Positions 1,195 to 25,445 of a DNA stretch of 36,959 nt are shown in pieces. A model generated the notes under the pieces. The model searched no databases. It saw only the letters and a list, made by a program, of their open reading frames with translations, and was not told the origin of the DNA. How positions within the stretch are numbered: the stretch's first letter is position 1; each line of letters opens with the position of its first letter. The DNA lies in IMG/VR virus record IMGVR_UViG_3300045132_000109, positions 1-36,959 of that record, one strand, 5' to 3'. The DNA comes from a virus. Lineage: Duplodnaviria > Caudoviricetes. A program made the position numbers and the translations under genes.

Positions 1195-1478
1195 ACGCCC
1201 AGGTTCTCCTCGCCACTCGGCGCCCACCCATGATGCGCTCCGGTAAGCCCGATGTAGCTTGCGTAGAATCGACGGACCAGTTCAACCGACCTCCCGCCGT
1301 GGAACGAATCCACCGGCGGGAAGCCCGATTTCGCTGAAATCATCGGGAAGCGGTCGGCAAGCCACTGCTTCGCGCGCTTGCTGCCGACGATCGCGGCAGC
1401 AAGTTCGGCATCCGTCGCAAACATCGGCAGGTTGTCCAGCGGGCGGAACGGCTGGCTGTTGTCATTGGCTGGTTTCAT
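1167..1478 (-). CDS. Putative excisionase / small DNA-binding protein
   Basis: Immediately upstream of and overlapping int; start MKPANDN with ATGA overlap and GGAGG RBS. Confidence 0.6.
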   Translation of the reverse strand: MKPANDNSQPFRPLDNLPMFATDAELAAAIVGSKRAKQWLADRFPMISAKSGFPPVDSFHGGRSVELVRRFYASYIGLTGAHHGWAPSGEENLGVWKRSKRRA

Positions 1479-1696
1479 GTCCCGCCTCCCTTGCTTGCGA
1501 GGGCTTGGCGTCCGGCTGTGGTCCAGCGGAACTCGCGATTGCGACCATCGCCACGATATTCCAGCCAACCCTTGCGTACGAATCGGTCGTAAGATTTCCG
1601 CAAGAAAGGCGGATCGAAGCTCGCCCACTTGTTCGGGCTGCCCGGATCGGCTTCCATCTCCGCGATGAATTCGCCTTCGTGTTCGGTCAGCTTCAC
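1475..1696 (-). CDS. Small winged-helix-like hypothetical protein
   Basis: Coupled start/stop overlaps; wing-like end FRWTTAGRQAL. Confidence 0.65.
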   Translation of the reverse strand: MKLTEHEGEFIAEMEADPGSPNKWASFDPPFLRKSYDRFVRKGWLEYRGDGRNREFRWTTAGRQALASKGGGT

Positions 1697-1932
1697 GGCT
1701 TCTCTCCCTCTGAAAGAGCGGCGCGGCCGGCGGGGGTGATCTGCCAGCCCTTAGGCTCACGGCGCTTCCCACGCCATCCACCGACATATTCTGCAAAGCC
1801 AAGACGTTTGCATGTCTGCCGAACGCGGTCTTCTTTTCGGTCGGCGAGCGGCAATAGAGATCGCGGCGCGGGGCCGGCATGCGTGGCAAGGATGCGCTCC
1901 AACGCACGGCGCTGGTTCCATGTCAGCTTCAT
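1693..1932 (-). CDS. Small winged-helix-like hypothetical protein
   Basis: Start MKLTWNQ at 1932 after GGAGGAAGG; ends WQITPAGRAAL. Confidence 0.65.
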   Translation of the reverse strand: MKLTWNQRRALERILATHAGPAPRSLLPLADRKEDRVRQTCKRLGFAEYVGGWRGKRREPKGWQITPAGRAALSEGEKP

Positions 1933-2369
1933 GCCTTCCTCCCGATGGCGCGGATAGCAGCGGCGATAGGCTGTAAAACTTCGGCGGGGAGATTGAAGAA
2001 GCCGAGTTGGCCTCTGCACGGAATCAGCGGTAGTGCGAACGCATCGCGCAGCACGAAGCCGTAGCGCCCGAAAAACCAGTTGCTGTCCATTTCGGTCACG
2101 CAATCAACAATACGCGCCATGCCGACGACGCCGCCGCGCGGGAGTGCTTTGTCTCGGTCGTCCTCCATATCGAGTTCCGACTTCGAAACTCCGGCGTGAA
2201 CGATAAACCAGCCTCGGCCTTTGGTTGGCCAATCGCGGTTCTCGACATCCTTCCCATCATGGAAAATATGATGCGGGTACGGCTGCTTGATGCTCAGGGC
2301 CTTAATGTCTCCGCGCTCGACACGATCCGCCAGCGGTCGGAGATCAATAGCCTCTCGTGCGTCACTCAT
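1929..2369 (-). CDS. ASCH domain protein
   Basis: KALSIKQPY...GKDVENRDW...GGVVGMA...PCRGQLGFF ASCH signature; start at 2369. Confidence 0.85.
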   Translation of the reverse strand: MSDAREAIDLRPLADRVERGDIKALSIKQPYPHHIFHDGKDVENRDWPTKGRGWFIVHAGVSKSELDMEDDRDKALPRGGVVGMARIVDCVTEMDSNWFFGRYGFVLRDAFALPLIPCRGQLGFFNLPAEVLQPIAAAIRAIGRKA

Positions 2370-3120
2370 GGCGGCCTGCCTCCATCGCGGCCTTGAGGGC
2401 GTCCAGAAGCCGTGCCTCATTGTCGGACCAGTCACGATCTCCGGGGCTATCGGTGTATCCGCATGAGTAGGCCAGCCGCAGAACATCGACCATCGCCTCC
2501 GTCACCGCCTGTTCTGAGGGGCGGAGGAAAAGGGGGCGCTCCTCGGCCTCGTAGTTCGCAACGCGAAAGAACGGCGCACGGCCTTCGGACCAGTCGCTCC
2601 ACGTACCTTTTCGCCCACTGGTCTTGTAAACAGGGCGCGACCGCCATTGCCACGCGGCTGGCTGCTGGCCTTCCGGTGCGGCTGGCTCGACCATCTTCCC
2701 GGCGTCGGCAATATGGTCTGCGGCTGGCTCAAGGGCGGAGAGGGCGGTTTCGATTGCCGCAATGGCAGGCGAGATCAGACCGTCAGCGAAAGTTACTTGA
2801 TCCACCACGCCGTCTGCCTTCAGGTGGCTGTAGGCGTGTCGAAGCTGGGCAAGGTGGTATTCGAGCGCCTTCACCTTCACCGCGCCTGTGCGGGAGAGGG
2901 ATGCGGCGGCGCGGACATGCTCTCCAAGACGATCTAGGGTGGCGTCGTGTTCCTTTCGGAGAAAGCGAAGTTCCTTCGTCAGCCGCTCGTTCTCTGCCTC
3001 CAGTTCGGCAAAGAGGTCGGCGCAGATGTATTCGGTCCAGCCGAAGACGGATTCACTGAGGCAGACAATTCGCCTATCGTCGTATGTGGCCCAAATCTTT
3101 TCAGGTGTATCGTTGCTCAT
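2362..3120 (-). CDS. Phage hypothetical protein (mosaic, coiled coil)
   Basis: Start MSNDTPEKIW at 3120, coupled to neighbours. Confidence 0.7.
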   Translation of the reverse strand: MSNDTPEKIWATYDDRRIVCLSESVFGWTEYICADLFAELEAENERLTKELRFLRKEHDATLDRLGEHVRAAASLSRTGAVKVKALEYHLAQLRHAYSHLKADGVVDQVTFADGLISPAIAAIETALSALEPAADHIADAGKMVEPAAPEGQQPAAWQWRSRPVYKTSGRKGTWSDWSEGRAPFFRVANYEAEERPLFLRPSEQAVTEAMVDVLRLAYSCGYTDSPGDRDWSDNEARLLDALKAAMEAGRHE

Positions 3121-3221
3121 GATTTTCTTCCGCTGACGGCAAGAATTGAAACAATGGCGATGAATGGAAACACCAAAACGGCGACCATCGCCACATCGGG
3201 CCAAGTAGCGCAGGTATTCAT
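3117..3221 (-). CDS. 34-aa single-TM peptide
   Basis: MNTCATWPDVAMVAVLVFPFIAIVSILAVSGRKS; ATGA overlaps at both ends; not in the ORF track. Confidence 0.55.
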   Translation of the reverse strand: MNTCATWPDVAMVAVLVFPFIAIVSILAVSGRKS

Positions 3222-3415
3222 TTCTTATTATCCAAACGTATCTTGTGCCAACTGCGATGGACAGTATCCCATGCGTCAGCCCAGGCGTCTTTTGGGCTAG
3301 CAAAACTAATGTCGTTAAGCTCTCCGTATTTTTCGCTCAGAACAATCCATCCCGTCTTAACTTTGCGAATACGTGCGTCAGGAACTTCGATAAGGACGTG
3401 TGCTTTATTGCTCAT
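3218..3415 (-). CDS. Hypothetical protein (AT-rich)
   Basis: GGAGGG RBS; coupled to neighbours. Confidence 0.65.
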   Translation of the reverse strand: MSNKAHVLIEVPDARIRKVKTGWIVLSEKYGELNDISFASPKDAWADAWDTVHRSWHKIRLDNKK

Positions 3416-3926
3416 GATCTATCGTCCCTCCTGTCTGTGCGCGGCGGGCGTCTTCTGCAGTACGTCGCATGTCATCGACTTTAGACGACCCAATGCGAGG
3501 ATCGCTGTGGCTTCGCTTTATGATATGTCCCAGCGCCTTCAACGCTTCGTCGCGTCGGGCTTCGACGCGCTGGTTTTCTCCTCGAAGAACCTCGTTTGTT
3601 CCTTCGGCATATTCCAGCGCCTGTTGCGTCTCTGCATGGGCGGCGCGTTCGGTGGCGAGGGCGGTGGCGATGACTTTGGTTCCGAACCGCTCGACGTGTT
3701 CGGCATCCATATTCCCGATCACGCCGGATGCGATCTTGAGCGCGATCGCTCGCGCCTCTGTCTGCGCATCCACCAGCCCGCCGACTTCGGCTGGCGTTAT
3801 GGCGCACTGTTGCGCGGCAACAGTCGGGGCGGTGTCGGTGAAGTAAGGCCCATGATCCTCGCCGGTTAGGGCGGCTAGCTTTTCTCCATCAGCAATAAGG
3901 GCGGCCTGCATCTCTTTATCCATCAC
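3405..3926 (-). CDS. Hypothetical coiled-coil protein
   Basis: AGGAGG RBS; fits operon tiling. Confidence 0.7.
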   Translation of the reverse strand: MMDKEMQAALIADGEKLAALTGEDHGPYFTDTAPTVAAQQCAITPAEVGGLVDAQTEARAIALKIASGVIGNMDAEHVERFGTKVIATALATERAAHAETQQALEYAEGTNEVLRGENQRVEARRDEALKALGHIIKRSHSDPRIGSSKVDDMRRTAEDARRAQTGGTIDHEQ

Positions 3927-4174
3927 GCCGCCACCCTCCTATCGCCGCGCTTGCGCCGCCGATTGTCATTGGCAACACGTCTTGCCGCTTCCCGCGCCTG
4001 CGTAACTGCGCCAGGTATCTGCATGCTATCGCCCGTAAGCGACGCCACGGTGCGCGCGATTTCGATTAACTCCCGGCGTGCCGGCGAGGAGCCAGCCATG
4101 CTGACGATCTGATAGGCGCGCGTGCCTTGGGCGATAAACTCGTGGGCGGTTAGGATGTTATGCTGCGATGTCAT
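3923..4174 (-). CDS. Hypothetical protein ending in an ssrA-like tail (ANDN...VAA)
   Basis: GAGGAG RBS at 4182-4187. Confidence 0.7.
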   Translation of the reverse strand: MTSQHNILTAHEFIAQGTRAYQIVSMAGSSPARRELIEIARTVASLTGDSMQIPGAVTQAREAARRVANDNRRRKRGDRRVAA

Positions 4175-4216
4175 TGGTAGTCTCCTCTATTGTGGTGGTG
4201 CGGCTGGTGAGGCCGG

Positions 4217-4572: not shown

Positions 4573-4850
4573 GGCCGGCCCTCCGCCTTGGCGATGGCGT
4601 CATTGACGATGTCCCATTCCTCATCGACAAAGCAGCGCCAGTTGTCGCCGCCAGCTACAACCCTCATAGCCTCCAGCAACACAGGTGCGGCGGCTATCAG
4701 GCGGGCCGTTTCTTGCCGGTGCGTGGCCGCAACTTCGTGCCCTCGCTCGTCGAGCACCACATACCGCTCGTAGCCGTACTGGTGCACGGTCCAATCCAGT
4801 GCCCCATTGCGCCCCGCGCAATCTGGCACGGCGTGCTGATGGTCAGTCAT
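4569..4850 (-). CDS. Phage hypothetical protein
   Basis: ARLIAAAPVLLEA...DAIAKAEG motif common in phage early proteins; AGGAGG RBS. Confidence 0.7.
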   Translation of the reverse strand: MTDHQHAVPDCAGRNGALDWTVHQYGYERYVVLDERGHEVAATHRQETARLIAAAPVLLEAMRVVAGGDNWRCFVDEEWDIVNDAIAKAEGRP

Positions 4851-5044
4851 GCCGCCCTCCTGTCGTGGGCGTTCCACGCCGCCTCAATCTCGGCGTTCTT
4901 GTTCGCGTATCCTTCGCGCTCGTTAATGGCGCGGCAGAACAACTCCGCCGCGGCTTTACTGTGCAACGCCCCGATGGCGCGCCCGTTTTCGAGTATCTGG
5001 TAGCCTCCGCGAAACAGCGGGCGGCAGGTCATGAGGCCGCTCAT
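4847..5044 (-). CDS. Hypothetical protein
   Basis: ATGA-coupled on both sides. Confidence 0.6.
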   Translation of the reverse strand: MSGLMTCRPLFRGGYQILENGRAIGALHSKAAAELFCRAINEREGYANKNAEIEAAWNAHDRRAA

Positions 5045-5214
5045 GCCGCCGTCTCCACGCTAACGGTGCGCGGGTCGAAATCCCAATCTTCCTCATGCGC
5101 AGACAGCACCCGCTGGCGCAGCATCCGGTTAATGCGCGCAAGCTGTTGCACAAGGGCCGCGCGTTCGCGCTCAAGGCGCTGCCGCTGGCCGGGGTCAAGG
5201 TTGGTGGTGCGCAT
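5041..5214 (-). CDS. First gene of the PL operon, small coiled-coil protein
   Basis: GAGGAG RBS 7 nt upstream of the ATG at 5214. Confidence 0.6.
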   Translation of the reverse strand: MRTTNLDPGQRQRLERERAALVQQLARINRMLRQRVLSAHEEDWDFDPRTVSVETAA

Positions 5215-5245
5215 GGCGACTCTCCTCATGTGGTGTTCGGTCGCC

Positions 5246-5673: not shown

Positions 5674-6327
5674 TCAGCGCGCCTCGTACTTGCCGACGAT
5701 CCGGTGGCAGAAAGGCCAGTCTGCGCGGGTTTCCGTAAACTCACGCTCCGGGTTGTACTGCTTCAGGAACCAATCCTGGTCATTGTATCGAACGAGGCGC
5801 TTGACGATTGCCTCCGCTTCGTTCGAGCCCAGCGGCGGTACGTGATACAGCACCACGTTCTTATCGCGTGCGGGCGGCAGGTGGGGGTGAACCAGCGCCA
5901 TGTCGCCGGGTTCGAAAGCCGGGGACATCGATTCCCCGACGATATAAACGCCGTAAGCGTCCTTCACGCTTTCAAGGATAGCGGGGCGCTTCACGTAGTC
6001 GATCGCCTCAAACGTCACGATCTGATGGCCGTCCCCGCCCATCGCGGCGGCATAAACCGGGAAGTTTCGGTCTCCGACAAGCTCGGCACCGGGCACAATC
6101 TCCGGCTTGAACGGTTCAGACAAGGGGACTGGCGTCCGCATCAAAAGAGATTTGGCCGCCGGCACCGTGTCGGCCAGCGCAACAAGACGCATCAGGTTCT
6201 CGCCCCGCGTCTTGCCGCCATGCACCCAGCGGTTCACGGAAGATTGCGTAACTCCCAGCTGGGCGGCAAGGGCTTCCTCGCCGCCGAAGTGGTCAACCAG
6301 AATTTTTGTTAGTGCCGACGTGTCCAT
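5674..6327 (-). CDS. cI: CI-like repressor (XRE HTH + S24 peptidase)
   Basis: HTH LAAQLGVTQSSVNRW; cleavage region AAAMGG; catalytic GESMSP and IVKRL; ATG at 6327 has no RBS (possibly leaderless). Confidence 0.9.
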   Translation of the reverse strand: MDTSALTKILVDHFGGEEALAAQLGVTQSSVNRWVHGGKTRGENLMRLVALADTVPAAKSLLMRTPVPLSEPFKPEIVPGAELVGDRNFPVYAAAMGGDGHQIVTFEAIDYVKRPAILESVKDAYGVYIVGESMSPAFEPGDMALVHPHLPPARDKNVVLYHVPPLGSNEAEAIVKRLVRYNDQDWFLKQYNPEREFTETRADWPFCHRIVGKYEAR

Positions 6328-6736: not shown

Positions 6737-6985
6737 ATGAAGCAGGGAATCAGGAAATTGCGAGCGGGCGGCGGGTCCATCCGCCAGATCGCGGCAGCAC
6801 TCGGCATCAGTTACGGTGGCGTATGCCACCATATTTACGGCAGTCGCGGGCGTAAGCGGCCGCGCGCTACGCACAACAGCGTCATCCGGCGCGTCCCGGT
6901 ACTCGGCGCTCAGGGCAGCATGTCTTGCTACGACGTTTTCGTCAGCCTGCCGCGTGTTTCGATTTTGGAGGCGGCACATGCCTAA
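6737..6985 (+). CDS. HTH protein (Cro position)
   Basis: GGSIRQIAAALGISYGGVCHH helix-turn-helix; GAGGAG RBS; first gene of the PR operon. Confidence 0.75.
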   Translation: MKQGIRKLRAGGGSIRQIAAALGISYGGVCHHIYGSRGRKRPRATHNSVIRRVPVLGAQGSMSCYDVFVSLPRVSILEAAHA

Positions 6986-7262
6986 ACCCGACGAAGACTT
7001 CATCGGCATCGGCGATGTCGTCGAGCACAAGATGAACACTAACGTCTTCGGCATCGTGATCGGCTTTGCCGGTAGCGTTGTGTACCTGCGACTGTCGCCC
7101 AGTTTGCGAGTGGCTTCCTTCCACGAATGGGAGCTGCGGCTGCTGGACGACGATGGCGGGCCCGAGCCTGACGAGCCAGCAAGGGCGGATAACGTCGTGC
7201 CGGTGGATTTCACGCGCGGCGTCAAGCTGACCAAGAACACTAAGACCAAGGGCGCGGCGTAG
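6978..7262 (+). CDS. Small SH3/KOW-like protein
   Basis: IGIGDVVEHK...GIVIGF pattern; GGAGG RBS; start at 6978. Confidence 0.65.
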   Translation: MPKPDEDFIGIGDVVEHKMNTNVFGIVIGFAGSVVYLRLSPSLRVASFHEWELRLLDDDGGPEPDEPARADNVVPVDFTRGVKLTKNTKTKGAA

Positions 7263-7312: not shown

Positions 7313-8308
7313 ATGAAACTTGAAGTTGGAATGAGGGTGCGGGCGACGTACGGCGGGCTGGATCTCACGAAGGGCAGGGAATACGAGATCGTTGCAGTCG
7401 ACCCCGATGATGTAGACCTGCCAATTCGTATCCGCGACGATGCAGGTGATGTACGGTGGCTCTTTGCTGATAGCTTCGAGCCCCTCACCGAACCCACCAG
7501 CGCCGCCATAACCAACGCGCAGGACGACAAGCCGAAGTTCAAGGTGGGCGATAGGGTGCGCGCCATAAGAAGCACCGACAACGTTGAAAAGGGCGAGACG
7601 TATACCGTACTGGGTTACGCGCGCCCGACCGGTGTCGACCTCTGGGTGATGCTTGATGGTATCCGAGGCTGGACTGACGATGGATCCTACCTTGAGCAGT
7701 ACTTCGAGCCTGCCGGCCTCACCATCCAGCCGGGCAAGCACTACATCACCCGCGACGGGCGGAAGGTGGGGCCAGCAAGGCCAAGCGTCGGCACCGACTA
7801 TCCGTGGTGGGTCGGCGAGTCTACCTACACCGATAGCGGCGAGTGGCTTGATGGCTGCGAAGATGACAACGACCTCGTCGCGGAGGCGGACGAGCCCGCC
7901 AAGGCAGACAACGATTACGGTAGGTCGGTCCTAAAATTCAAGGATGGACGCCTTATCCCTGAATCATCGTCTTTCAGGATGGTCTCCGGTCCAACTCCCC
8001 GCAAGGCCATCGTTTGCCTGATCGAAAGCGGCCAGCCGAAGCCTGCGAACCTGCCACACGTTCATGCATCCACAGCAGCGGCAGAGCGTGAAGCCGCCCG
8101 CCTTGCCTCACGCCACAAGGGCAGAGAGTTCGGTGTCTACGAACTCGTTTCCAGCAAGCGCGAGGAGCCGGCGTACGAGCATGAATGGCAGCGACTAGCC
8201 GCGCGTGGAGAAAAGATCGCTGCGATCCTCCAGCTTCGGCGAGACCACAACTTCCTAAGTCTCCGCTCCGCCAAGGGCTTCGTCGAAGACTTCCTCGACG
8301 CCGCCTAA
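7313..8308 (+). CDS. Multi-domain protein: repeated SH3/KOW-like units plus a C-terminal L7/L12-CTD-like segment
   Basis: KLEVGMRVRA and KFKVGDRVRA repeats; C-terminal GEKIAAILQLR...LSLRSAKGFVE; start at 7313. Confidence 0.75.
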   Translation: MKLEVGMRVRATYGGLDLTKGREYEIVAVDPDDVDLPIRIRDDAGDVRWLFADSFEPLTEPTSAAITNAQDDKPKFKVGDRVRAIRSTDNVEKGETYTVLGYARPTGVDLWVMLDGIRGWTDDGSYLEQYFEPAGLTIQPGKHYITRDGRKVGPARPSVGTDYPWWVGESTYTDSGEWLDGCEDDNDLVAEADEPAKADNDYGRSVLKFKDGRLIPESSSFRMVSGPTPRKAIVCLIESGQPKPANLPHVHASTAAAEREAARLASRHKGREFGVYELVSSKREEPAYEHEWQRLAARGEKIAAILQLRRDHNFLSLRSAKGFVEDFLDAA

Positions 8309-9449: not shown

Positions 9450-9488
9450 CCGGCCTACCAAGCCGGCACCACAACAAGAGGAGATACT

Positions 9489-10265
9489 ATGGCTATCAGC
9501 CTTAGCAGCCTGAAATCCACCAAGCGAAACGACCCGCCCGTTATGCTTTTGTATGGCGTGGACGGCATAGGCAAGACCAGCCTTGCCGCCGAGTTCCCGA
9601 ACCCGATCTATCTCGGCACGGAAGGCGAGCGCCCACCGTCCGACATTGAACTTGCCACGCCGGGCGTCATCACCGATCTGAACGACGTTTTCGGCGTGTT
9701 CGAGGAACTGCTAACCACGGAACACGGGTTTCAGACCGTCATCATTGACTCGCTAGACGGGCTGGAGCCGCTGGTTTGGCGGGCGACGTGCGCCAGGCTC
9801 GGCGTCAACAGCATTGAAGAACCGGGATACGGTCGCGGGTACATCGAGGCCGATGCCGAGTGGTCGGAATACCTGTCGGCGGTTGGCGCGCTGGCCGTGG
9901 CGGGTATCAACGTCGTGCAGCTGGCCCATCCGGAAATCGTGCGGTTCGACTCGCCAACCAGCGACCCATACAGCCGCTACACCGTCAAACTGAACAAGCG
10001 CGCCAATGCGCTCGTCCGCGAGCGGGCCGATATTGTCGGCTTTCTCAACTACCGCATTTCGCTGAAGGAAAAGGAGGTCGGCCACAAGAAGACCGTCACC
10101 CATGCCGAGGGGGGCAAGGAGCGGCAGATCCACCTGAATGAAGGCGCCGGCTTCGTGGCGAAGAATCGCTTTTCCATGCCGGACACGGTCACTTACCGCA
10201 AGGGCAAGGGGTACGAGGAGCTTTCCAAATACTGGCTGCCGGCGGAAGCGAAGGAGGCGGCGTGA
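9489..10265 (+). CDS. Sak4-like AAA_24 ATPase (ssDNA annealing/recombinase)
   Basis: Walker A YGVDGIGKTS, Walker B VIIDSLD, GYGRGY, AKNR. Confidence 0.85.
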   Translation: MAISLSSLKSTKRNDPPVMLLYGVDGIGKTSLAAEFPNPIYLGTEGERPPSDIELATPGVITDLNDVFGVFEELLTTEHGFQTVIIDSLDGLEPLVWRATCARLGVNSIEEPGYGRGYIEADAEWSEYLSAVGALAVAGINVVQLAHPEIVRFDSPTSDPYSRYTVKLNKRANALVRERADIVGFLNYRISLKEKEVGHKKTVTHAEGGKERQIHLNEGAGFVAKNRFSMPDTVTYRKGKGYEELSKYWLPAEAKEAA

Positions 10266-10649: not shown

Positions 10650-11246
10650 ATGGCCAAACTGGCTACCCGATTCAATGCGCAGGACCATGATACCGAGCAG
10701 CGCGATTACGAAGAACTCCCGAACGGCACTTACGAACTTGAAGTCGAGGCGTCCGACGTCACGCCCACCAAGGACGGACGCGGCACCATCCTGAAAACCA
10801 CGATGGTCGTGCTGCGGCCCGAGGAATACGAAAAGCGCAAGCTGTTCAACAATTTCAACCTCGAAAACCCGAACGTCCAAGCGCAGGAGATCGGTCAGCG
10901 GCAGTTCGCCAGCCTGTGCCGCGCCATCGGCGTGCAGGAAGTGGAAGACAGCGAGGAGCTGCACTTTAAAGCGTTCACCGCCAAGATCGGCTTGGGGCGC
11001 CCAAGCAAGGACGGGCAGTATCCGGCCCGTGCCGAGATTAAGAAGTATTTCTTCCCGGATCAGGGCGACGTGCCGGAGCCCGCAATCGACGCTGATCAGC
11101 CCAAGGCTGCCAACGACAACCGCCCTGCTGCGCGGCAGGCCGCAAACAGCAATAGCCGCGCGACCCCGGCGCGCGCTGCTGCTGGCGGTAAGTCTCGCCC
11201 ATGGGGGCAGAGAAGCAACACGGTCGACGACGACATTCCGTTCTGA
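10650..11246 (+). CDS. ssb: Single-stranded DNA-binding protein (DUF669-like)
   Basis: Follows the Sak4-like gene; LPNGTYELEV N-terminus; acidic DDDIPF tail. Confidence 0.8.
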   Translation: MAKLATRFNAQDHDTEQRDYEELPNGTYELEVEASDVTPTKDGRGTILKTTMVVLRPEEYEKRKLFNNFNLENPNVQAQEIGQRQFASLCRAIGVQEVEDSEELHFKAFTAKIGLGRPSKDGQYPARAEIKKYFFPDQGDVPEPAIDADQPKAANDNRPAARQAANSNSRATPARAAAGGKSRPWGQRSNTVDDDIPF

Positions 11247-16855: not shown

Positions 16856-16918
16856 GGCCGACCAACTGGCCACACCGCCGGGCAACCAACCCGGATAACC
16901 ACGAAGAGGAGATGAAGC

Positions 16919-17314
16919 ATGACGACAGCAAGCGCACTATTCCCTGCGCAGTACGTTTCCAAGACGGCGTCCGAGCGCATCAAGTGCGTTGAGCGGCAAC
17001 GTTCTGAGGCGCGCGAAGAGCGCATTAAGAAGATAATGGAAACGCCAATAATCAGCGGTTTCCTATGGTGTAGAAAGGAGCGATTGCCGTCGCGAGAGAA
17101 GGCGGAGGCCATCTACGTGACTCCGATACATTACTTTTCGCCCAAGCAGCATGTGGAGCGCGACCACAACTTCACTCTCAGCAAGTTGCGTCCGCTTCTT
17201 CGGCTTTCGCGGGCGGCGGAAGAAGCCAATCCAACGGCGGCAACATTTGTTTCGCTAACCGCAGCAGACTGCCGCGTCCTTGACATTCCGTCCAACTTGG
17301 GAGTCTCGGCATGA
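16919..17314 (+). CDS. Hypothetical protein
   Basis: GAGGAG RBS; coupled to the next gene. Confidence 0.7.
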   Translation: MTTASALFPAQYVSKTASERIKCVERQRSEAREERIKKIMETPIISGFLWCRKERLPSREKAEAIYVTPIHYFSPKQHVERDHNFTLSKLRPLLRLSRAAEEANPTAATFVSLTAADCRVLDIPSNLGVSA

Positions 17315-17823
17315 CAAACCAAAACTACCTCGCCTACGACGTCACCGTCCTCGAACGCGAGTTCGCGGACCTGCTGGCCGCGTATCCCGAGCTAGCCGAA
17401 GACGAAGAACTGCGCGCCGATACCATCGAAGGCGAAACCGACGCGCATCGCATCCTTGCCCGCATCGTTGCTGTAGAGCGGGATGCCGACAGCATGGCGA
17501 AAGCAATAGCGGATCGCGCACGCGATCTTGCCGGCAGAAGGGCCCGCCACGAGCGCAAGAAGGAGGCGATGCGAGTACTGCTGCTGCGCCTGCTGAAAGC
17601 CGCTGGGCTGCCCAAGGTTGCACTGCCAGAGGCTACAGTGTCCGTCAGCAAGGGTAGGGACAGTGTGGAGATTGTGGACGCGGATGCGTTGCCTGCCGAG
17701 TTGGTGCGTGTTGAGCGTATTCCGGACAAAAAAGCCATTCTGGATGTCGTGAAGGGCTGCGGCGAGATACCCGGCGCGCGGCTTGTTACAGGCGGTGAGA
17801 CGCTGACCGTCCGCGCAGCATAG
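17311..17823 (+). CDS. Siphovirus Gp157 family protein
   Basis: DTIEGET, coiled coil, PDKKAI...IPGARL C-terminus. Confidence 0.85.
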   Translation: MTNQNYLAYDVTVLEREFADLLAAYPELAEDEELRADTIEGETDAHRILARIVAVERDADSMAKAIADRARDLAGRRARHERKKEAMRVLLLRLLKAAGLPKVALPEATVSVSKGRDSVEIVDADALPAELVRVERIPDKKAILDVVKGCGEIPGARLVTGGETLTVRAA

Positions 17824-17894
17824 CACCCGCCTAGTTGTGCCCCGCACAACCACCATACACGGCTACCAACCATGCACCACAATGAGGAGATGAT

Positions 17895-18713
17895 ATGCGC
17901 ATTGAACGCATTGGCGATACCGTTTTGTACAACGGCGATTGCCTTGAGGTTATGGCGACGTTGGAACCTGTGGATCACGTCATAAGTGATCCGCCGTATG
18001 AAGAAAGCCTTCACGCATCGAAGAATAGCCTGCGCGGACGGGTCCGCGCAGATAAGGGTCCAGATCTGAAAGGGCTGGATTTTTCGTCCATCAATGACAT
18101 TCGGGCCGACGTTGTGTCTGCCGCCGAGCGTATTTGCGAAGGCTGGTTCATCGCCTTCTGCACTATTGAGGGTGTCGCCTATTGGGCCGAAGCCATCAAC
18201 GCATCGCCCATGAAATACAAGCGCGGCTGCCTATGGGTAAAGCCCGACGCAACGCCACAACTTAATGGGCAGGGGCCAGGTCAGGGCGCGGAGTGCTTCG
18301 TCACAGCATGGAACGGCAAAGGCCACGCGCGCTGGAACGCGGGTGGCAAGCGTGGCGTCTATACGCACCTGACCAATCAGCGCGACCGTGATGGTAGACA
18401 TCCGACCGAAAAGCCAATCCCGCTCATGGCGGAGCTGCTGGCCGACTTCACTAATGCCGGCGACACCATTCTAGACCCGTTCATGGGCTCCGGCACAACC
18501 GGCGTCGCCTGCGCACGAATGGGGCGAAAGTTCATCGGCATCGAGTTGGATCCGCGCTATTTCGACATCGCCTGCGTGCGTATCGAAAAGGCTTATGCGC
18601 AGGGCGATATGTTTGTGGAGCGGCCCAAAAAGGAAAAGCCTGCGTCGCTCTTTGGGGATAACGACAATTCTGCTCCCGGGCAAGCAGGTGCGGCAGACGG
18701 GCGGGCAGCCTAA
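17895..18713 (+). CDS. DNA N6-A/N4-C methyltransferase, beta class
   Basis: GDCLEVM, DPPY, HPTEKP, LDPFMGSGTTG, FIGIELD. Confidence 0.92.
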   Translation: MRIERIGDTVLYNGDCLEVMATLEPVDHVISDPPYEESLHASKNSLRGRVRADKGPDLKGLDFSSINDIRADVVSAAERICEGWFIAFCTIEGVAYWAEAINASPMKYKRGCLWVKPDATPQLNGQGPGQGAECFVTAWNGKGHARWNAGGKRGVYTHLTNQRDRDGRHPTEKPIPLMAELLADFTNAGDTILDPFMGSGTTGVACARMGRKFIGIELDPRYFDIACVRIEKAYAQGDMFVERPKKEKPASLFGDNDNSAPGQAGAADGRAA

Positions 18714-19535
18714 TGGCCAAGCTCACCAGAGCCCAAGCCAAGTCGCACGCGGCCGCCGTAGAGCGTCTTCAGCAAGACCACCTGACCGAAGATGACAAGG
18801 AATTCGTTTATCGAAACTGGAACGAAGGCGCGAACCATGTCAACGGTGCGGCTGGTGCGTTCTTCACACCGTTCGACATGGCGTTCGACTTCGCGATCGA
18901 TGCTGGAGGCGGGGCGAGTAATCGACCTGTGTTCCGGCATTGGCATGCTGTCGTATGCAGTTTGGCAACGCAGCCGGTTCAACCACCGCAGACCACAGAT
19001 TACCTGTGTCGAGCGTAACGCGGATTACGTCGAGGTCGGCCGCAAACTGCTGCCAGAAGCAACGTGGATCTGCGCGGATGTTCTGGGCGTGCTCGACATG
19101 CGTCTGGGCCACTTCGACTCTGCGATCAGCAACCCACCTTTCGGTAACATTCGCCGCACCAAAAACAGTCCACGCTACGCAGGCAAAGACTTCGAGTTTC
19201 ACGTCATCGACATAGCGGCGCACCTTGCCGACTACGGAACGTTCATCGTCCCGCAGATGTCGGCTGGCTTCAACTTTTCGGGGCGGCCAAACTATGAGCG
19301 CCAAACAGGCGGGCGTGCCGTGGCCTTCCAGGAACTGACCGGCCTTCACTTTGATGCTGGCTGTGGCGTCGATACGGCGCTCTACAAGGACGAGTGGAAG
19401 GGGGTGTCGCCTATTTGCGAGATCGTCTGCGTCGACTTCACCGAAGCGCGGCCTGTTGCTGCCAAACAACCCGCTGCTGCAAACGACAATCAGCCGCAGG
19501 CCGACCTATTCGGAGCTACCCATGGCGCAGCATGA
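18713..19535 (+). pseudogene. N6-adenine methyltransferase (NPPF) interrupted by a frameshift near 18911-18914
   Basis: GAFFTP in the frame starting at 18713; VIDLCSGIG and NPPF in another frame; removing one G from GGGG joins them. Confidence 0.8.
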
Positions 19536-19848
19536 ACCGACAACCTGCCACGTCTGCGGCCGCCACGCCATAGGCATTGGCGTAGGCAAACCACCCAACG
19601 ACCCCCGGTGGCTGTGCGCCGAATGTGTACCGCTGCTGGAATACGTCAAGTCGGTGCGCCGATGGGATGCCTATGAGGTGAAGGCGCTTGACGCAGTGGA
19701 TGACGCCACGGGCGACTTTGCCGCCGAGCACGGCACGGACATTGCGGCCTATGACGATGTAACCCGCCGCGCCCTATGGCGGTGCGCGATACAGGCGCAT
19801 CAGGACGGTATTCGGCGGCTGATAACGGATGGGGATGCCCCCTTCTAG
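19522..19848 (+). CDS. Zn-finger hypothetical protein
   Basis: CHVC...CAEC; ends DGDAPF; GGAG RBS. Confidence 0.7.
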   Translation: MAQHEPTTCHVCGRHAIGIGVGKPPNDPRWLCAECVPLLEYVKSVRRWDAYEVKALDAVDDATGDFAAEHGTDIAAYDDVTRRALWRCAIQAHQDGIRRLITDGDAPF

Positions 19849-20093
19849 TCGGCAAGTATGCCCGCCTCTTTCGCCACAGCCGCAAACGCCTTGCGGGCCT
19901 TGTAGAGCAGCGCAGGGTCATCGGCCCCACCCTCCAGCGCGGCGAGCAACACCTCACGCGCGGCCAGCGTGTCCGTAACTGGCCACAGTTCATCGTCGAG
20001 CAGAAGGCGTGCCGCCTCCTCGGCCGACGACACAACCTGCCTGGCGTTGCTGCCAACCCAGATCGAGACAGGAGTTTTGAACCAATGACGCAT
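19845..20093 (-). CDS. DUF982 family protein
   Basis: WFKTPV...SSAEEAARLL..WP...ARKAFAAVAKEAGIL pattern. Confidence 0.7.
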   Translation of the reverse strand: MRHWFKTPVSIWVGSNARQVVSSAEEAARLLLDDELWPVTDTLAAREVLLAALEGGADDPALLYKARKAFAAVAKEAGILAD

Positions 20094-21440
20094 CGCGAAA
20101 GTGTGCCACGGGGAGCGGCGAACGACAATCACACCGGCCCGCGCGTCCTCGACCTGTTCAGCGCTGCCGCTGGTGGGTGGTCACTGGGCATGCACCGCGC
20201 CGGATTCCACACCATAGCGGCGTGCGAAGTCATCCCCTGGCGGCGCGCCCTCTATTCCCAGAACAACCCCGGAGTGCATGTCTATGACGACGTCACAACC
20301 CTTACCGCAGACCGACTTGTTCGGGACGGTATTGGGCTTCCCGACATCATCGTCGGGTCGCCGCCCTGCCAAGACATCGGCAGCGCGAACACCAAAGGCA
20401 AGGGCGTCGACGGCGAGCGCAGTGGCCTCTATTTCGAGGCCGTCCGACTTATCGACGAATGCCAGCCTCGTTGGTTCGCTCTTGAGAATAGCGCTAATCT
20501 CCGAACTAGAGGCGCAGACAGGGTCATCGATGCGCTGGAGGCCATCGGCTACACCTGCTGGCCGTTTGTGGTCAGTGCTGGAGACATCGGGGCCAACCAC
20601 GAGCGCAAGCGAAGCTGGCTCACTGGGTTCAAGGTTAGCGACGCCAACGACCAAGGGAAACTTCGCGGCGGATTCCATGCAGAAGTGGGATTCGTGCAGA
20701 CCGTGGAATGTGATGATCGGAACGCCGACAAAGAAGTCAGCACCGCGGTCAGAGGACTTTGCGAGAGGCAGGTCGCCGACGATCGTCGAGGCATTACTTC
20801 CGACACCCACGGCGACGCGGTACGGCTCGCAGAGCTACCCGAACGATCCAAGCCGCAAGCGCCCATCACTGGAAACGCTGCTGAAGCCGCAGATGATGCC
20901 AACGCCGGTGAAGCCGAACGGCGGTCGGACGCTGTCCAAGGAAGCAATCGAGACGGGCAAGCGTGCGAACGGACAGAAGGCACAGATCGATACGCCGAAC
21001 CTGCTGCGCTATGCACTCGAAACCCTCCCCACCCCGACGAAGCGGGACAAGCGGCTGGACTCCTGGAGTCCAGCCTACGATCGGCGCAAAAGCCCGACTA
21101 TGGATGCTGTGATGGATGGAGCGATAACGGGCCGTGCGTCGGACAAATGGGCGGGAGCGCGAGCCCTAGCCCAACTCCTGCGGAGCCATGGGCTGACTGG
21201 AACGGCGGCCTTGCCCGTCACCTACGGCTGGATGATGGGCTTTCCACCTGGGTGGCTGGCACGCGCATTGCGCTCGGCAGTCGCAAAGGGACTGCTGCGG
21301 CCAGCCTGATCGTCGAGGCGTTCGGCGACGCAGTCGTTCCGCAGATACCCGAAGCGATCGGCCGCGCCATCCTAAGGGTGGAGGCGGCTTTGGCCTTGAT
21401 TGCCAACGACAACAAGCAGGAGGCCAGCATTGCAGCCTAA
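20085..21440 (+). CDS. C5-cytosine DNA methyltransferase, alpha polypeptide
   Basis: Motif I VLDLFSAAAGG, IV GSPPCQD, VI LENS, VIII HERKR, X GDAVVPQ; CAGGAG RBS before ATG 20085. Confidence 0.9.
   Translation: MTHRESVPRGAANDNHTGPRVLDLFSAAAGGWSLGMHRAGFHTIAACEVIPWRRALYSQNNPGVHVYDDVTTLTADRLVRDGIGLPDIIVGSPPCQDIGSANTKGKGVDGERSGLYFEAVRLIDECQPRWFALENSANLRTRGADRVIDALEAIGYTCWPFVVSAGDIGANHERKRSWLTGFKVSDANDQGKLRGGFHAEVGFVQTVECDDRNADKEVSTAVRGLCERQVADDRRGITSDTHGDAVRLAELPERSKPQAPITGNAAEAADDANAGEAERRSDAVQGSNRDGQACERTEGTDRYAEPAALCTRNPPHPDEAGQAAGLLESSLRSAQKPDYGCCDGWSDNGPCVGQMGGSASPSPTPAEPWADWNGGLARHLRLDDGLSTWVAGTRIALGSRKGTAAASLIVEAFGDAVVPQIPEAIGRAILRVEAALALIANDNKQEASIAA
20284..21309 (+). CDS. Overlapping alternative-frame ORF: putative beta polypeptide (TRD repeats + motif IX) of the C5 methyltransferase
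   Basis: GGAG 9 nt before ATG 20284; five (L/M)xTP(T/V) repeats; GWMMGFPPGW motif-IX-like block. Confidence 0.7.
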   Translation: MTTSQPLPQTDLFGTVLGFPTSSSGRRPAKTSAARTPKARASTASAVASISRPSDLSTNASLVGSLLRIALISELEAQTGSSMRWRPSATPAGRLWSVLETSGPTTSASEAGSLGSRLATPTTKGNFAADSMQKWDSCRPWNVMIGTPTKKSAPRSEDFARGRSPTIVEALLPTPTATRYGSQSYPNDPSRKRPSLETLLKPQMMPTPVKPNGGRTLSKEAIETGKRANGQKAQIDTPNLLRYALETLPTPTKRDKRLDSWSPAYDRRKSPTMDAVMDGAITGRASDKWAGARALAQLLRSHGLTGTAALPVTYGWMMGFPPGWLARALRSAVAKGLLRPA

Positions 21441-23643
21441 CCCCGCACCCACAGACCCCATGCTCGACCTCGCCCTGCACTATGCCGCGCAGGGCTGGCC
21501 GGTATTCCCCTGCCGTGCCGCCGACGATTATGACCCCGAAACCGGCGAAGTCCTGCCGGAGAAGGCACCGCTTATCAGCAACGGCTTCCGCGGCGCCACG
21601 CTTTCGGAGAGGATCATCCGCGAGCTTTGGAAGCGCAACCCCGGCGCTCTCGTTGGCATCCCGACCGGTGAGCGCACTGGTGTTTGGGTGTTGGACCTGG
21701 ACATCAAGGCAAGCGCCAACGGCCACGAATGGCTTGCCGCGATGGAGGCCGCCCACGGCGACCTCCCAAACAGCGCCCGCGTCCAGACGGCCAATGGCGG
21801 CACGCATATCTTCTTCCGGCACGTTGAAGGCGTCCGTAACCGCGGCAAGCTTGGTGATGGCGTCGATGTTCGGGGCGAGGGTGGCTTTGTCATTGCGGGT
21901 GGCAGCTCTATGGCGGATGGCCGTGCCTATCATTGGCTCGGCGACACCGGCCCGGACGACACAGTGGGCGCGCCGCAATGGTTGCTCGATCTTGTTTTGC
22001 CGCCTGTCCACACCCATCATGCGGGCGATTGGCATTACGAGGCGGGTAGCAATGACCGGTATGTCAATCGCGCCATGGAGTCGGAACTGTCCGAACTGGC
22101 AGGCACGCCGCCGGGCAATCGCGGCTACCAGCTCAACGCTTCGGCATTTGCGCTCGGGCAACTGGTGGGAGCGGGGGCCATCCACCGTAGCGAGGCCGAA
22201 CATGGTCTATACGCGGGAGCCGTGACATGCGGCGTTGCGCAGGCGGACGGTGAGCGCGAGACGTGGGCGAAAATCCGCCGCGGTCTTGATGCGGGCGAAA
22301 AGCAGCCGCGGCATATCCCGACTCCGCAGGCGGAAAACGACAACACACGCTTGGTCGACATCAAGAAGATGCTGGAACGGGCGCGTGAAAAAGCCGCGAA
22401 GAAAGCAGCCAAGGGACCGGCCGATGACGAGCCAGAGGTTGCGGTAGAGCCCACGCCTGCACCTGCGGACCCCACGCTGCCCGTCACCGAGGACGACACA
22501 CCCTTCCGTTTCACACCCTTTTCGTGGAAAGACCCCGCAAGCTTGCCGCGGCGCGAGTTCGCGTTCGGCAAGCATTACATTCGCAAATACGTGTCGGTGA
22601 CGGTCGCGCCGGGCGGTTTGGGCAAAACCAGCAACAGCGTCGTCGAGGCATTGTCCATGGCGTCCGGGCGCGACCTGACGGGCGACAAGCCGCCCAAGCG
22701 TCTCAAGGTGTGGCTGTTCAATGCGGAAGACCCTCGCGATGAAATGGACAGGCGGATCATGGCTGCGTGCCTGCACTATGGTCTATCGCCTGCCGACATC
22801 GAGGGGCATCTGTTTCTCGATACCGGGCGCGAGCAGGAGCTTATCGTCATGCACGAGGACCGAAAGGCCGGCGTGACGGTCAATGTGCCTATCGTGGAGG
22901 CCGTGGCAGAGCAAATCCGCCGCAACAAGGTCGATGTGCTGATCGTAGATCCGTTTGTTTCGACGCACCGCGTCAACGAGAATGACAACGGCGCAATCGA
23001 CAAGGTTGCAAAACTCTGGGCGCAGATCGCCGATGACACCAACTGCGCAATCGACGTGGTGCATCATCTGCGGAAACTCGCCGATCGTGAGGCAACCGTG
23101 GAAGACGCCCGCGGCGCTATCTCGCTGATTGGTGCGGCTCGTTCGGTGCGCGTGCTGAACCGCATGTCTGTCGAAGACGCCAATGCTGCGGGCATCGACG
23201 TTAAGGACCGCTACAGTTACTTCCACATTCATTACGGCAAGCAGAACCTGACCCGCATGGATACGACGCAACATTGGCGGAAGATGGTATCGGTCGGGCT
23301 GGGCAACGGCGGAAAAGGGCTTCTGGCGAAAACGCAGCAGGACACCGCTGGCGTTGTGACGGCGTGGAAGTGGCCGACAACCGAAGAAATAGTTAGCGAT
23401 CTGACTGCCGAGCAGATCGACAACATCAAGTCGGTGTTGCGCGGGCAGGCGTACAAGGCAGCCCCGCAGGGCAAGCCGTGGGCGGGTGAGGCGATAGCCT
23501 ATGTGTTGGGCGAGGACGCCGCGGACAAGGCCACCAGAAAGCGCGTAGGGTCGCTCCTGAAGGCCCTTATGAAAGAGGGCATTTTGGAACAGGTAGAGGA
23601 CCGTGATCCGGTCAGCCGGTCGGCCATGAAAGTGGTCAGATAA
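21430..23643 (+). CDS. Bifunctional primase-polymerase fused to an AAA_25 helicase
   Basis: GWPVFPC, LDLD, GGTHIFF, DVRGEGGFV; Walker A APGGLGKT, IVDPF, VVHH; TTG start with AGGAGG RBS. Confidence 0.9.
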   Translation: MQPNPAPTDPMLDLALHYAAQGWPVFPCRAADDYDPETGEVLPEKAPLISNGFRGATLSERIIRELWKRNPGALVGIPTGERTGVWVLDLDIKASANGHEWLAAMEAAHGDLPNSARVQTANGGTHIFFRHVEGVRNRGKLGDGVDVRGEGGFVIAGGSSMADGRAYHWLGDTGPDDTVGAPQWLLDLVLPPVHTHHAGDWHYEAGSNDRYVNRAMESELSELAGTPPGNRGYQLNASAFALGQLVGAGAIHRSEAEHGLYAGAVTCGVAQADGERETWAKIRRGLDAGEKQPRHIPTPQAENDNTRLVDIKKMLERAREKAAKKAAKGPADDEPEVAVEPTPAPADPTLPVTEDDTPFRFTPFSWKDPASLPRREFAFGKHYIRKYVSVTVAPGGLGKTSNSVVEALSMASGRDLTGDKPPKRLKVWLFNAEDPRDEMDRRIMAACLHYGLSPADIEGHLFLDTGREQELIVMHEDRKAGVTVNVPIVEAVAEQIRRNKVDVLIVDPFVSTHRVNENDNGAIDKVAKLWAQIADDTNCAIDVVHHLRKLADREATVEDARGAISLIGAARSVRVLNRMSVEDANAAGIDVKDRYSYFHIHYGKQNLTRMDTTQHWRKMVSVGLGNGGKGLLAKTQQDTAGVVTAWKWPTTEEIVSDLTAEQIDNIKSVLRGQAYKAAPQGKPWAGEAIAYVLGEDAADKATRKRVGSLLKALMKEGILEQVEDRDPVSRSAMKVVR

Positions 23644-23696
23644 ACACCAAAAAAACAGGCCAGAAAACACCCCAAAACCGGTCAACCGTACTGCTG

Positions 23697-23823: not shown

Positions 23824-23846
23824 TCAACTAAAAAATGGAGGTCCAT

Positions 23847-24353
23847 TTGGTACCCAAAAACACCACCACTCAAACAGTGCGCATCGCCGGCGTGCGCACC
23901 AAGCTGACAACCCGCAATGGGCGCGTCACCGCCAAGTCCGTCGGCGAGGTTGAATGGAAGCTACAAGCCGCTGCCGTTCGCGCGCTCCGCGCCATGCCGG
24001 AATTTGGTCGACAGTTCCTGTTGGCTGGAGACATGGCCAGCGGGAAGCGTGGTCCCAAAGCGCAGATGCAGGCGCTGGCAACAGGGCTGACGCCGGGCGA
24101 CCCGGACCTTAGGGTCTATCTACCGGCGGGCCGGGTCGCGTTCATCGAGTACAAGACTAGCACTGGCCGTCTGTCGCCGGTGCAGAAACAGCGACATGCC
24201 GATATGGAGCGGCTGGGCCACGCCGTCGAGGTGGTGGCGACTGTTACCGAGGAAGAGTGCGCCGCTGCTACGGTTGCGCTGGTGCGCGGGTGGTTGGCAG
24301 GCAACAGCAACCAGCAGAACGCCGCCCATAGCGAAATAACGCTTGCATCATGA
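23847..24353 (+). CDS. VRR-NUC domain nuclease (Holliday junction resolvase-like)
   Basis: PGDPDL...FIEYKTSTGRLSPVQ; TTG 23847 after GGAGG (ATG 23835 is the alternative). Confidence 0.85.
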   Translation: MVPKNTTTQTVRIAGVRTKLTTRNGRVTAKSVGEVEWKLQAAAVRALRAMPEFGRQFLLAGDMASGKRGPKAQMQALATGLTPGDPDLRVYLPAGRVAFIEYKTSTGRLSPVQKQRHADMERLGHAVEVVATVTEEECAAATVALVRGWLAGNSNQQNAAHSEITLAS

Positions 24354-24400
24354 GGCCGAAATAATCCTTATAAGCTATCGGCCATTGCACCGATTCACTA

Positions 24401-24467
24401 CGGCCTACCAAGCCGAATGGCCTACCAAGCCGAACCCCGCTTACCAGGCGGACACCACTTAGAGGAG
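24401..24467 (+). repeat. Tandem GGCCTACCAAGCCGAA hairpin repeat plus a third ACCA hairpin before the RBS
   Basis: Direct repeats at 24402-24417 and 24419-24434; the same 14-mer occurs at 9452-9465. Confidence 0.8.
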
Positions 24468-24473
24468 ATGCCC

Positions 24474-25445
24474 TTGACCACCTACAAATCCTTCGCCGAT
24501 GCCCTGTCGGCCCCGCGCACTACGACACCGCGCCCCGCACCCGCGGCCGCCAATGACAACAAGCCACGCAAGGCCCCTCAGCCACGCTATCGCGGGACGC
24601 TGCCGGCGCTGCGCTGGCTGTACGACAACCACCCTGACCTGGCAGAACCGATGGCCCGTGCGGTGCGGTCGCTGTCAGCAACGACATGGGATGCGGACGC
24701 GGCCGATAACGATCAGAAGATTCGCCCAACCGTTGGCGAGCTTGTGAAGGCGGCGACTGATCCCAAAACGGGCGAGTGGCTACAACCGACAATCGAAACC
24801 GACAAAGACGGCAATACCAGTGTTCGGCTCGGGGCTCTGAAGTTTGTTCGCGGCGAGCTCGTCGAGTGCGGCGAGACCAAGAAAGGCCGCAAGCTGAGCC
24901 CGCGTGATAGGGTTGTTTCGAGGGACGAGGCTCCCGCAGATGCGCGCAACCCGTACCTGTACGTGTTTGGAACCAAGGCGACTACGCAGTCACCGCTTCA
25001 TGCTGAGCCCTACAGCCGCGCGTTATCCGGCGAGCCGGCACTTGCGCCGATGTATGCACCGCTTTCGGGTGTTGAGGAGGGGCGCGCCGAACTGGTCGCG
25101 CTTGGTGTCGATGGTTCTGTACCGTTCGACAAGCTGCCGTTCCCCGCAACGAAGGGCATGTCGGCTATTGCATCTGGCGCTGACTTCCTTGGTGGTATCG
25201 TCGGGTCCAGCGGTACAGCGTCCAGCGGCGCGGTGAACATGGGCGACTTGCCCGACGCGCCGAGGGGCGAGGCGAGGCTGGTCGTCGAGGCTGTCGCATC
25301 TGGCGCAACGTTGAAGGACATCGGCGAGCGGATGGGGCTCGATGGCGCGCGCGTAGATCGGGCGGCAAAGGACGCCCTTGTCAACGCTGCTCGCGCACTG
25401 GTTGCCTCGAACGATAACAGCCCGCGAAAGAAGAAAGTGGCGTAG
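24474..25445 (+). CDS. Putative late-gene regulator with C-terminal HTH
   Basis: GATLKDIGERMG HTH; Q-like position at the end of the replication module; TTG start 6 nt after GAGGAG. Confidence 0.65.
   Translation: MTTYKSFADALSAPRTTTPRPAPAAANDNKPRKAPQPRYRGTLPALRWLYDNHPDLAEPMARAVRSLSATTWDADAADNDQKIRPTVGELVKAATDPKTGEWLQPTIETDKDGNTSVRLGALKFVRGELVECGETKKGRKLSPRDRVVSRDEAPADARNPYLYVFGTKATTQSPLHAEPYSRALSGEPALAPMYAPLSGVEEGRAELVALGVDGSVPFDKLPFPATKGMSAIASGADFLGGIVGSSGTASSGAVNMGDLPDAPRGEARLVVEAVASGATLKDIGERMGLDGARVDRAAKDALVNAARALVASNDNSPRKKKVA

Follow-up and report, generated by a model that had tools for sequence, protein, structure and literature searches.

The window analysed here, that is, the whole stretch of 36,959 nt, is the IMG/VR provirus IMGVR_UViG_3300045132_000109, in which the tripeptide Asn-Asp-Asn (NDN), often within ANDN, recurs at the ends and in the linkers of phage proteins, several of which end in Ala-Ala (AA). 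The record has an estimated completeness of 57%, with tail genes absent from it, and its genes run from the integrase through an early region to head and neck genes. Matches in PHROG and Pfam name an integrase, a repressor, Sak4, a single-stranded DNA-binding protein (SSB), a beta clamp, a Cas4-domain exonuclease, a helicase and Gp157, together with three methyltransferases, a primase, a terminase, a portal and a capsid protein. With its integrase, repressor, Sak4-SSB-clamp-Cas4-helicase-primase module and HK97-type head genes, the provirus is a 16-3-like temperate phage of Rhizobiales. Its best named phage relatives are Rhizobium and Sinorhizobium phages, 16-3 among them, and its nearest prophages sit in Aquamicrobium soli, Tianweitania sp. 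and Borborobacter arsenicus (helicase identity 73-78%); we infer that its host, too, belongs to the Rhizobiales.

A six-frame scan of the provirus finds 13 NDN copies, all of them read in frame within a gene. Two lie on the minus strand (starts 1466 and 3970) and eleven on the plus strand (11112, 16787, 16811, 18660, 19482, 20121, 21405, 22336, 22981, 24552 and 25410); the residue ahead of NDN is A at seven sites, E at three, D at two and S at one. The motifs that an initial annotation had listed in early proteins are thus each present where it had placed them, in the frame of a real gene; the copy at 22981 is additional to its list. Against the 13 observed copies, 2000 per-protein shuffles give a mean of 0.66 and a maximum of 4 (an approximately 20-fold enrichment over background), and NDN is the most over-represented tripeptide in the provirus (log10 p -12.3; runner-up -5.0); its permutations are not enriched in the six frames (NND 2, DNN 1, DND 7, NDD 3 and DDN 2). 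Counts by gene were made on 61 called genes, 46 early and 15 late, the caller agreeing with a manual list on 56/59 stops. NDN is borne by 9/46 early and 0/15 late genes, and AA ends are found in 11/46 early genes, as the initial annotation had estimated, and in 1/15 late genes, with about 0.8 expected overall. All 13 copies are early; the contrast itself is weak (Fisher p 0.10 for NDN-bearing genes, 0.26 for AA ends and 0.026 per residue). Among the nine carriers four end in AA and one in VA, those without an AA end otherwise being SSB, the helicase, the primase and the protein in the Xis position. Three tRNA genes (Gly, Thr, Pro; 25827-26062) divide the early from the late region.

The three methyltransferases all carry the motif in their tails. 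In DNA methyltransferase 1 (17895-18713, plus strand), placed by coding-frame scan and family assignment, a tail of the form DNDN...RAA occupies 18657-18713, and its family has NDN in 29/29 members and an AA end in 22. DNA methyltransferase 2 (18713-19535, plus strand) has the tail ANDN...GAA (19479-19535), with NDN and AA in 9/9 members of its family; the gene is frameshifted near 18910, where it is split at a G-rich run, either by a sequencing error or because the gene is broken. The cytosine methyltransferase (20085-21440, plus strand), delimited by coding-frame scan, has an N-terminal ANDN (20118-20129) and a C-terminal ANDN-x6-AA (21402-21440), the latter free of overlap with a downstream ribosome-binding site (RBS), of the length of the host tag discussed below and identical to it at 8/13 residues. 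A 341-aa open reading frame with its own RBS (20284-21309), without a PHROG match, is nested in another frame of the same gene.

SSB (DUF669; 10650-11246, plus strand) carries ANDN in its tail at 11109-11120, 44 residues ahead of its DDDIPF end, and NDN is found in 42/43 members of the family. The helicase (15197-16855, plus strand; NDN in 45/49 members) has two copies in its tail, ADNDN and ENDNYAE (16781-16819), and ends in DDSIPF, not AA. In the primase gene (21460-23643, plus strand), ENDN (22333-22344) lies in the linker between the primase and helicase domains, a predicted coil (residues 289-308, pLDDT <50); the entire C-terminal domain of the model is of low confidence, so the model is informative for the linker site only. 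The second copy in this gene, ENDNG in the AAA_25 core (22978-22992, plus strand), is incidental and stands outside the tag-like set, since the NDN at 22981 is invariant in 14/14 aligned relatives and is kept in phage RHph_X2_26, which has no other copy.

The last gene ahead of the tRNAs encodes a 323-aa protein for which no family was found (24474-25445, plus strand), with an N-proximal ANDN (24549-24560) and a C-terminal SNDN-x6-VA (25407-25445) spaced as in the tag. On the minus strand, a 103-aa protein beside the integrase (1167-1478), an excisionase by position, has ANDN at residues 4-7 (1458-1469) and ends in RRA; an N-terminal ANDN is also present in 16-3 Xis. An 83-aa protein of unknown function (3923-4174, minus strand) has a tail ANDN...VAA (3923-3973), the end of which overlaps the RBS and start of the next gene. 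The integrase (1-1194) and the repressor (5674-6327), both on the minus strand, have neither an NDN motif nor an AA end, and the two are likewise unmarked in 16-3. Overall, NDN sites lie at or outside profile edges, in flanks that lean towards disorder (order-promoting residues 23% versus 31%).

Elsewhere in the window, a loosely repeated intergenic element (9450-9485, 16878-16913, 17864-17892 and 24442-24470), ending CACCAC...AGAGGAGAT, precedes several early genes, and a glycosyltransferase-like gene (PHROG 4603; 34015-34626) stands amid the head-tail connector genes.

Relatives were collected with helicase scans, run twice on viral contigs and once on bacterial genomes, giving 90 loci including the provirus, which were reduced to 56; seven with 0-2 NDN (L014, L019, L021, L022, L023, L072 and L076) were left out and the right half of 16-3 was added, so that the comparison set comprises 50 loci, 1311 proteins and 391 families. 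Across these loci NDN is found in 49/391 families with the consensus AANDN, and the motif is real, strong and lineage-wide. Phage 16-3 has 22 copies in six frames, including those in Xis, SSB, the helicase, methyltransferases, portal and tape measure, and the gene in the portal position of the prophage in bacterial genome G001 carries the motif as well. Within families, what appears and disappears is a short terminal segment bearing NDN. On the Sak4 tree five changes in NDN state are required, of which at least four are forced, and a quick Cas4 tree gives seven changes for seven NDN carriers among 46 rows. The Cas4 pattern is not taken as seven independent gains: all copies occupy the same position and disappear where an extra gene has been inserted downstream, which repeated loss or an exchange of tails would explain equally well. 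In the provirus itself, a gene on the opposite strand without a family match (14557-15183) is inserted between Cas4 and the helicase, and relatives so inserted are without the Cas4 NDN tail.

The codons used for NDN in the relatives vary (first Asn AAC 298, AAT 157; Asp GAC 368, GAT 87; second Asn AAC 285, AAT 170), the Asp ratio being near that of the same-context background (Asp before AA, 967 versus 281), which argues that selection acts on the peptide. An origin from a DNA repeat was rejected, the codons being varied and no motif family emerging beyond one loose three-copy match, as was direct capture of ssrA DNA, because the 25 best peptide matches share 19-28 of 39 nt with tag-coding DNA. 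It is accordingly very unlikely that the motif is a by-product of a DNA motif, linker composition, common ancestry or RBS and stop-start overlaps, with no function of the peptide. The poverty of the flanks in order-promoting residues would suit such an origin; against it, NDN is always in frame, its synonymous codons are free, its permutations are not enriched and the 49 families bearing it are unrelated.

The AA ends are the part of the pattern for which a by-product origin has most to offer, and the initial annotation had itself cautioned that some might arise from overlapping RBS sequences. AA ends without NDN are found in two small genes on the minus strand (4847-5214), both overlapping the RBS and start of the next gene, and on the plus strand in two genes at 6978-7262 and 7313-8308 (relatives of the latter have NDN in 22/33), in the Sak4-like annealing protein (9489-10265; EAA), in the Cas4-domain exonuclease (13621-14553; DAA) and in the portal (29451-30701; RAA); the Gp157/Gam-like protein (17311-17823, plus strand) ends in RAA. 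Several of these have marked relatives: NDN stands immediately ahead of an EAA-type end in 19/42 relatives of Sak4, in the tail of 7/47 relatives of Cas4 and at the N terminus of 15/32 relatives of the Gp157/Gam-like protein, and the 16-3 portal ends in ANDN-x6-AA. The caution holds to the extent that 5/11 of the early AA ends lie over the RBS and start of a following gene and that, without NDN, AA is commoner in such coupled genes (28% versus 17%). The excess is not explained by overlap, however. Proteins with NDN in their last 30 residues end in AA in 53/74 cases, versus 90/318 without NDN, where a downstream RBS and start are overlapped, and in 36/96 versus 68/409 where they are not; by family the figures are 17/26 with C-terminal NDN versus 71/365, and among the 41 proteins whose sole NDN is N-terminal, 24 end in AA or VA. 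Five comparator loci without the motif have AA ends in 1/42 overlapping genes. The AA ends are therefore only partly RBS by-products and are linked to NDN tails; a by-product origin may account for some of them, not for NDN. Together, the results show that NDN is real, that selection acts on it as a peptide, that it has come or gone repeatedly, and that it is coupled to AA ends.

What these tails resemble is the peptide tag that transfer-messenger RNA (tmRNA, ssrA) adds to proteins. In the three bacteria whose genomes hold close prophage relatives, the tag is (A)ANDNYAEARLAA, the first alanine being supplied by tmRNA. We compared 31 tmRNA loci, namely those of the three hosts and 28 drawn from 41 genomes sampled across the class (genome G152 excluded): the alphaproteobacterial tags begin with ANDN in 28/31 (three differ) and end in AA in 31/31, with a variable middle, so that the comparison with the host tag, which the initial annotation had proposed, identifies phage AANDN with the conserved tag head. 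Among 411 distinct phage NDN sites, Ala stands at -1 in 279 and at -2 in 210, with a flank background of 15%; neither position was used in selecting the hits, yet both match the tag. Upstream Ala is enriched and tag residues 6-8 are at background, which implies that the phages keep only what the host tags conserve. The best single match to the host tag is the tail of a protein at locus L059, with 11/13 residues. The spacing from head to end has its mode at 11 in both phage and host sets, 77/135 phage tails falling within 9-14. The ends differ at -3, where Leu is found in 2/89 phage NDN+AA tails versus 14/28 host tags, and Leu, Val, Ala, Ile or Met in 38/89 versus 28/28; the scarcity of Leu at -3 fits weak, SspB-dependent degrons.

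The adaptor SspB is available in the likely hosts. Its gene is present in 3/3 bacteria carrying close prophage relatives and was found in 39/41 sampled genomes of the class (a tally that includes G152), and the SspB of G001 matches the solved alphaproteobacterial structures PDB 2QAS, 2QAZ and 2NYS. In most sampled alphaproteobacterial genomes, contig C22 of G001 included, sspB directly adjoins ssrA; G001 also has a second, partial tmRNA-like match (G001:C19:5217-5545, 70 bits). In the provirus ARAGORN finds no tmRNA gene, and a phage-encoded SspB was not found in five records. When the methyltransferase tail was co-folded with the SspB of G001, the score was 0.00, a result that weighs neither way.

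The motif is not a general property of the host chromosomes. Three genomes, each of about 5 Mb, hold 32, 28 and 33 ANDN-coding 12-mers, of which 17/32 and 14/33 lie inside the prophage, and 12, 21 and 9 ANND control 12-mers; the provirus has 7 ANDN-coding and 0 ANND-coding 12-mers in 37 kb. Outside prophages, the chromosomes have approximately 3-4 ANDN-coding 12-mers per Mb, about 50-fold sparser than in the provirus. A host-wide motif was rejected, because the 30 non-prophage loci fetched from G001 and G003 lie mostly within long open reading frames, far from the ends; three of them are in a second mobile element. This element (L103; G001:C12:716000-725500) encodes small proteins and regulators with N-terminal ANDN and AA ends. 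Among 121 genomes of the phylum, most have 0-5 [AP]ANDN-coding sites, the one outlier being a tandem repeat gene.

The known biochemistry provides a framework for these tails. A terminal Ala-Ala is the main determinant for ClpXP and marks other cellular substrates too (PMC7652416); AA alone is often too weak, and an upstream Leu helps (PMC10862746). Where a weak end is combined with an SspB site, degradation comes to depend on the adaptor (PMC8138137, PMC9382460, PMC3064785). In Caulobacter, where SspB is found (PMC8138137) and the tag is AANDNFAEEFAVAA, deletion of sspB slows the turnover of a tagged protein (PMC9393093).

On this basis we consider it on balance probable that the (A)ANDN tails are weak, SspB-dependent ClpXP degrons which clear lytic-cycle proteins, more as a clean-up in lysogeny than as a lytic timer; that SspB binds the motif is the likelier part of the proposal, and one that we would expect to hold. 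Most likely the motif acts like an ssrA degron, yet is not an ssrA tag. Host SspB, which in alphaproteobacteria presumably reads the N-D-N residues of the tag, would grip NDN at ends and in linkers and hand the carriers to ClpXP, for which the AA or VA end, mostly without the tag's Leu at -3, would be a weak entry point, so that turnover would depend on SspB, as with the engineered DAS+4 tag. N-terminal and linker copies may act jointly with an AA end farther away or with some other loose end. Excisionase, recombination, replication, methylation and portal proteins would thereby be kept short-lived and be cleared when lysogeny is chosen or induction aborted; the unmarked integrase and repressor would persist. 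The initial annotation's reading of the motifs as tag mimicry is thus supported, as far as sequence goes, by the AANDN head, the coupled AA ends and the presence of SspB in likely hosts; the timer purpose that it attached appears too narrow.

Several observations weigh against this proposal. The most consistently marked families, SSB and helicase, finish in DDxIPF or in other tails without AA; Ala is missing before NDN at 6/13 provirus sites; tag residues 6-8 are at background in the phage sites (Tyr in 10/411); and the spacing is non-specific, family medians being about 12 for AA-ended and other tails alike. Three short relatives (L014, L072 and L076) are without NDN, though fairly close (helicase identity 51-67%), so the motif is not universal, and its frequent loss within families implies that single copies are dispensable. 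The temperate Sinorhizobium phage phiLM21 has merely two ANDN, and lambda, P22, D3, Bcep176, F116 and BcepC6B do not repeat the tag head of their own hosts, which argues against a general strategy; a scan of 24 records, counting every host, likewise gave no repeated ANDE or ANDD in gamma- and betaproteobacterial phages. Phages epsilon15 and phiV10 (L226, L227) keep one C-terminal ANDN, followed by IWG or IWEG, although the E. coli tag begins AANDE. Finally, the link to lifestyle considered below rests on few, partly related phages.

The non-AA tails invite the alternative that SspB is bound and the carriers are not destroyed, many copies titrating or tethering the adaptor and so jamming tag quality control or shielding phage proteins. 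SSB (42/43) and the helicase (45/49) carry NDN yet have such tails, tandem NDN copies occur, and Pseudomonas phage pf16 encodes its own SspB, a proposed competitor (PMC5587285). A decoy, however, needs no AA, and NDN is tied to AA ends with and without RBS overlap; a decoy would also be expected as one abundant protein, rather than in 49/391 families that include low-copy enzymes. We therefore regard titration as improbable.

The same tails raise the question of another reader, NDN docking onto a hub of the phage, its beta clamp for instance, or onto a host chaperone or a different host protease, with tag likeness secondary. DDDIPF (SSB, 11229-11246), DDSIPF (helicase, 16838-16855) and DGDAPF (a 108-aa protein of unknown function, 19831-19848) end their proteins, PF being the last two residues in 45/49 helicase and 40/44 third-family members; we take these ends to be comparable to the C-terminal tip of bacterial SSB. 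In the methyltransferase tails, QGDMF (18600-18660) and QADLF (19497-19511) lie beside NDN and presumably correspond to the beta-clamp-binding consensus, the phage having a beta clamp gene of its own (12034-13086). In favour of such a reader, DDxIPF ends share tails with NDN, QxDLF-like clamp motifs occur in 24/214 NDN tails versus 4/897 others, RHph_X2_26 is without the motif and without a detectable clamp gene, and epsilon15 and phiV10 share a single conserved ANDN. On the other hand, the tails agree with the tag both in the AA ahead of NDN and in the AA at their end, and the carriers have no common function, L103 of G001 having the motif on small regulators, so that a different reader seems about as improbable as titration.

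If the carriers are turned over by SspB and ClpXP, the purpose may be sought in the lytic or in the temperate cycle. The initial annotation had proposed a timer for replication and methylation proteins, and in the provirus 13/13 NDN copies do lie in early genes and the methyltransferases are the most complete mimics. This timing role is too narrow, as the early-late contrast is weak, and portal and tape measure are marked in relatives, 16-3 among them. Moreover, phage RHph_X2_26, which infects Sinorhizobium and shares Sak4, SSB, Cas4, helicase, primase, terminase and portal with the provirus, has 0 ANDN and leaves the homologous module unmarked; no tyrosine integrase match was found in this phage. 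A lytic timer is hence improbable. The motif on portal and tape measure and its absence from integrase-less RHph_X2_26 point instead to the temperate lifestyle, and favour, in a small sample, the clearing of lytic proteins in the temperate cycle. Agrobacterium phage 7-7-1 also has 0 ANDN.

AA ends show a comparable association. They are found in 8/55 called genes of lambda, 6/62 of P22, 7/65 of Bcep176, 9/77 of phiLM21, 10/78 of Yong-M3-232 and 3/97 of D3, with 0-4 in eight others; in lambda, P22 and Bcep176 the excess occurs without NDN. Pooled, AA ends amount to 96/710 genes in nine temperate or integrase-bearing phages versus 12/623 in eight others, a comparison in which some of the lifestyle labels are provisional, five records were checked for integrase, lambda is under-called and three of the first set are related. 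In lambda, P22, Bcep176, phiLM21 and Yong-M3-232 (L159-L164, L168-L173, L186-L188), AA-ended proteins are 6- to 13-fold above the expectation from composition.

How the phage tails relate to known systems is best seen in what each combines. The alphaproteobacterial tmRNA tag and the phage tails are alike in ANDN head and AA end, and their spacings share a mode that is not specific to AA-ended tails; the tag is added by trans-translation, whereas the phage motif is gene-encoded, does not copy the middle and is often split between an N-terminal or linker head and a distant AA. Natural ClpXP substrates with Ala-Ala C-degrons are single host proteins with the ClpX end only, in contrast to the adaptor-side head found across dozens of unrelated phage families. 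In E. coli RseA, the SspB site is not tag-like and requires prior cleavage. Its N-terminal fragment is genome-encoded and delivered by SspB to ClpXP (PMC5587285), one regulator as opposed to many phage proteins. The engineered DAS+4 tag joins an SspB site to a weakened ClpX end in a synthetic construct based on the E. coli tag (PMC9382460, PMC8138137), and the phage tails may be viewed as its natural counterpart. The nearest phage precedent is the SspB homologue of pf16: that phage encodes the adaptor (PMC5587285), whereas the 16-3-like phages copy the client motif.

The mimicry of host pathways by short motifs is well known in eukaryotic viruses; to our knowledge, it has rarely been shown proteome-wide in phages. 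Literature searches outside the subscription journals, some of them swamped by unrelated text, returned no account of phage proteins that mimic the tag head, and the main text of a sinorhizobial prophage survey has no mention of ssrA, ClpX or ANDN (PMC5537653).

A bolder possibility, which we think rather unlikely, is that the entire lytic programme is under one host adaptor through natural DAS+4-like tags, SspB occupancy serving as a sensor of translation stress in the lysis-lysogeny decision. If so, tmRNA-tagged host proteins would compete for SspB, and ribosome stalling would stabilise excisionase, replication and late-control proteins, in parallel to repressor cleavage. That AA-ended proteins are common in temperate phages, lambda and P22 among them, suggests that control by proteolysis is more widespread than has been noticed. 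The classical pair of phage 16-3 and Sinorhizobium meliloti makes the degron reading directly testable. If that reading is correct, one phage marks dozens of its own proteins for a host protease adaptor, and alphaproteobacterial SspB would have natural clients beyond tmRNA-tagged proteins, which may help to explain its retention across the class (39/41 genomes).

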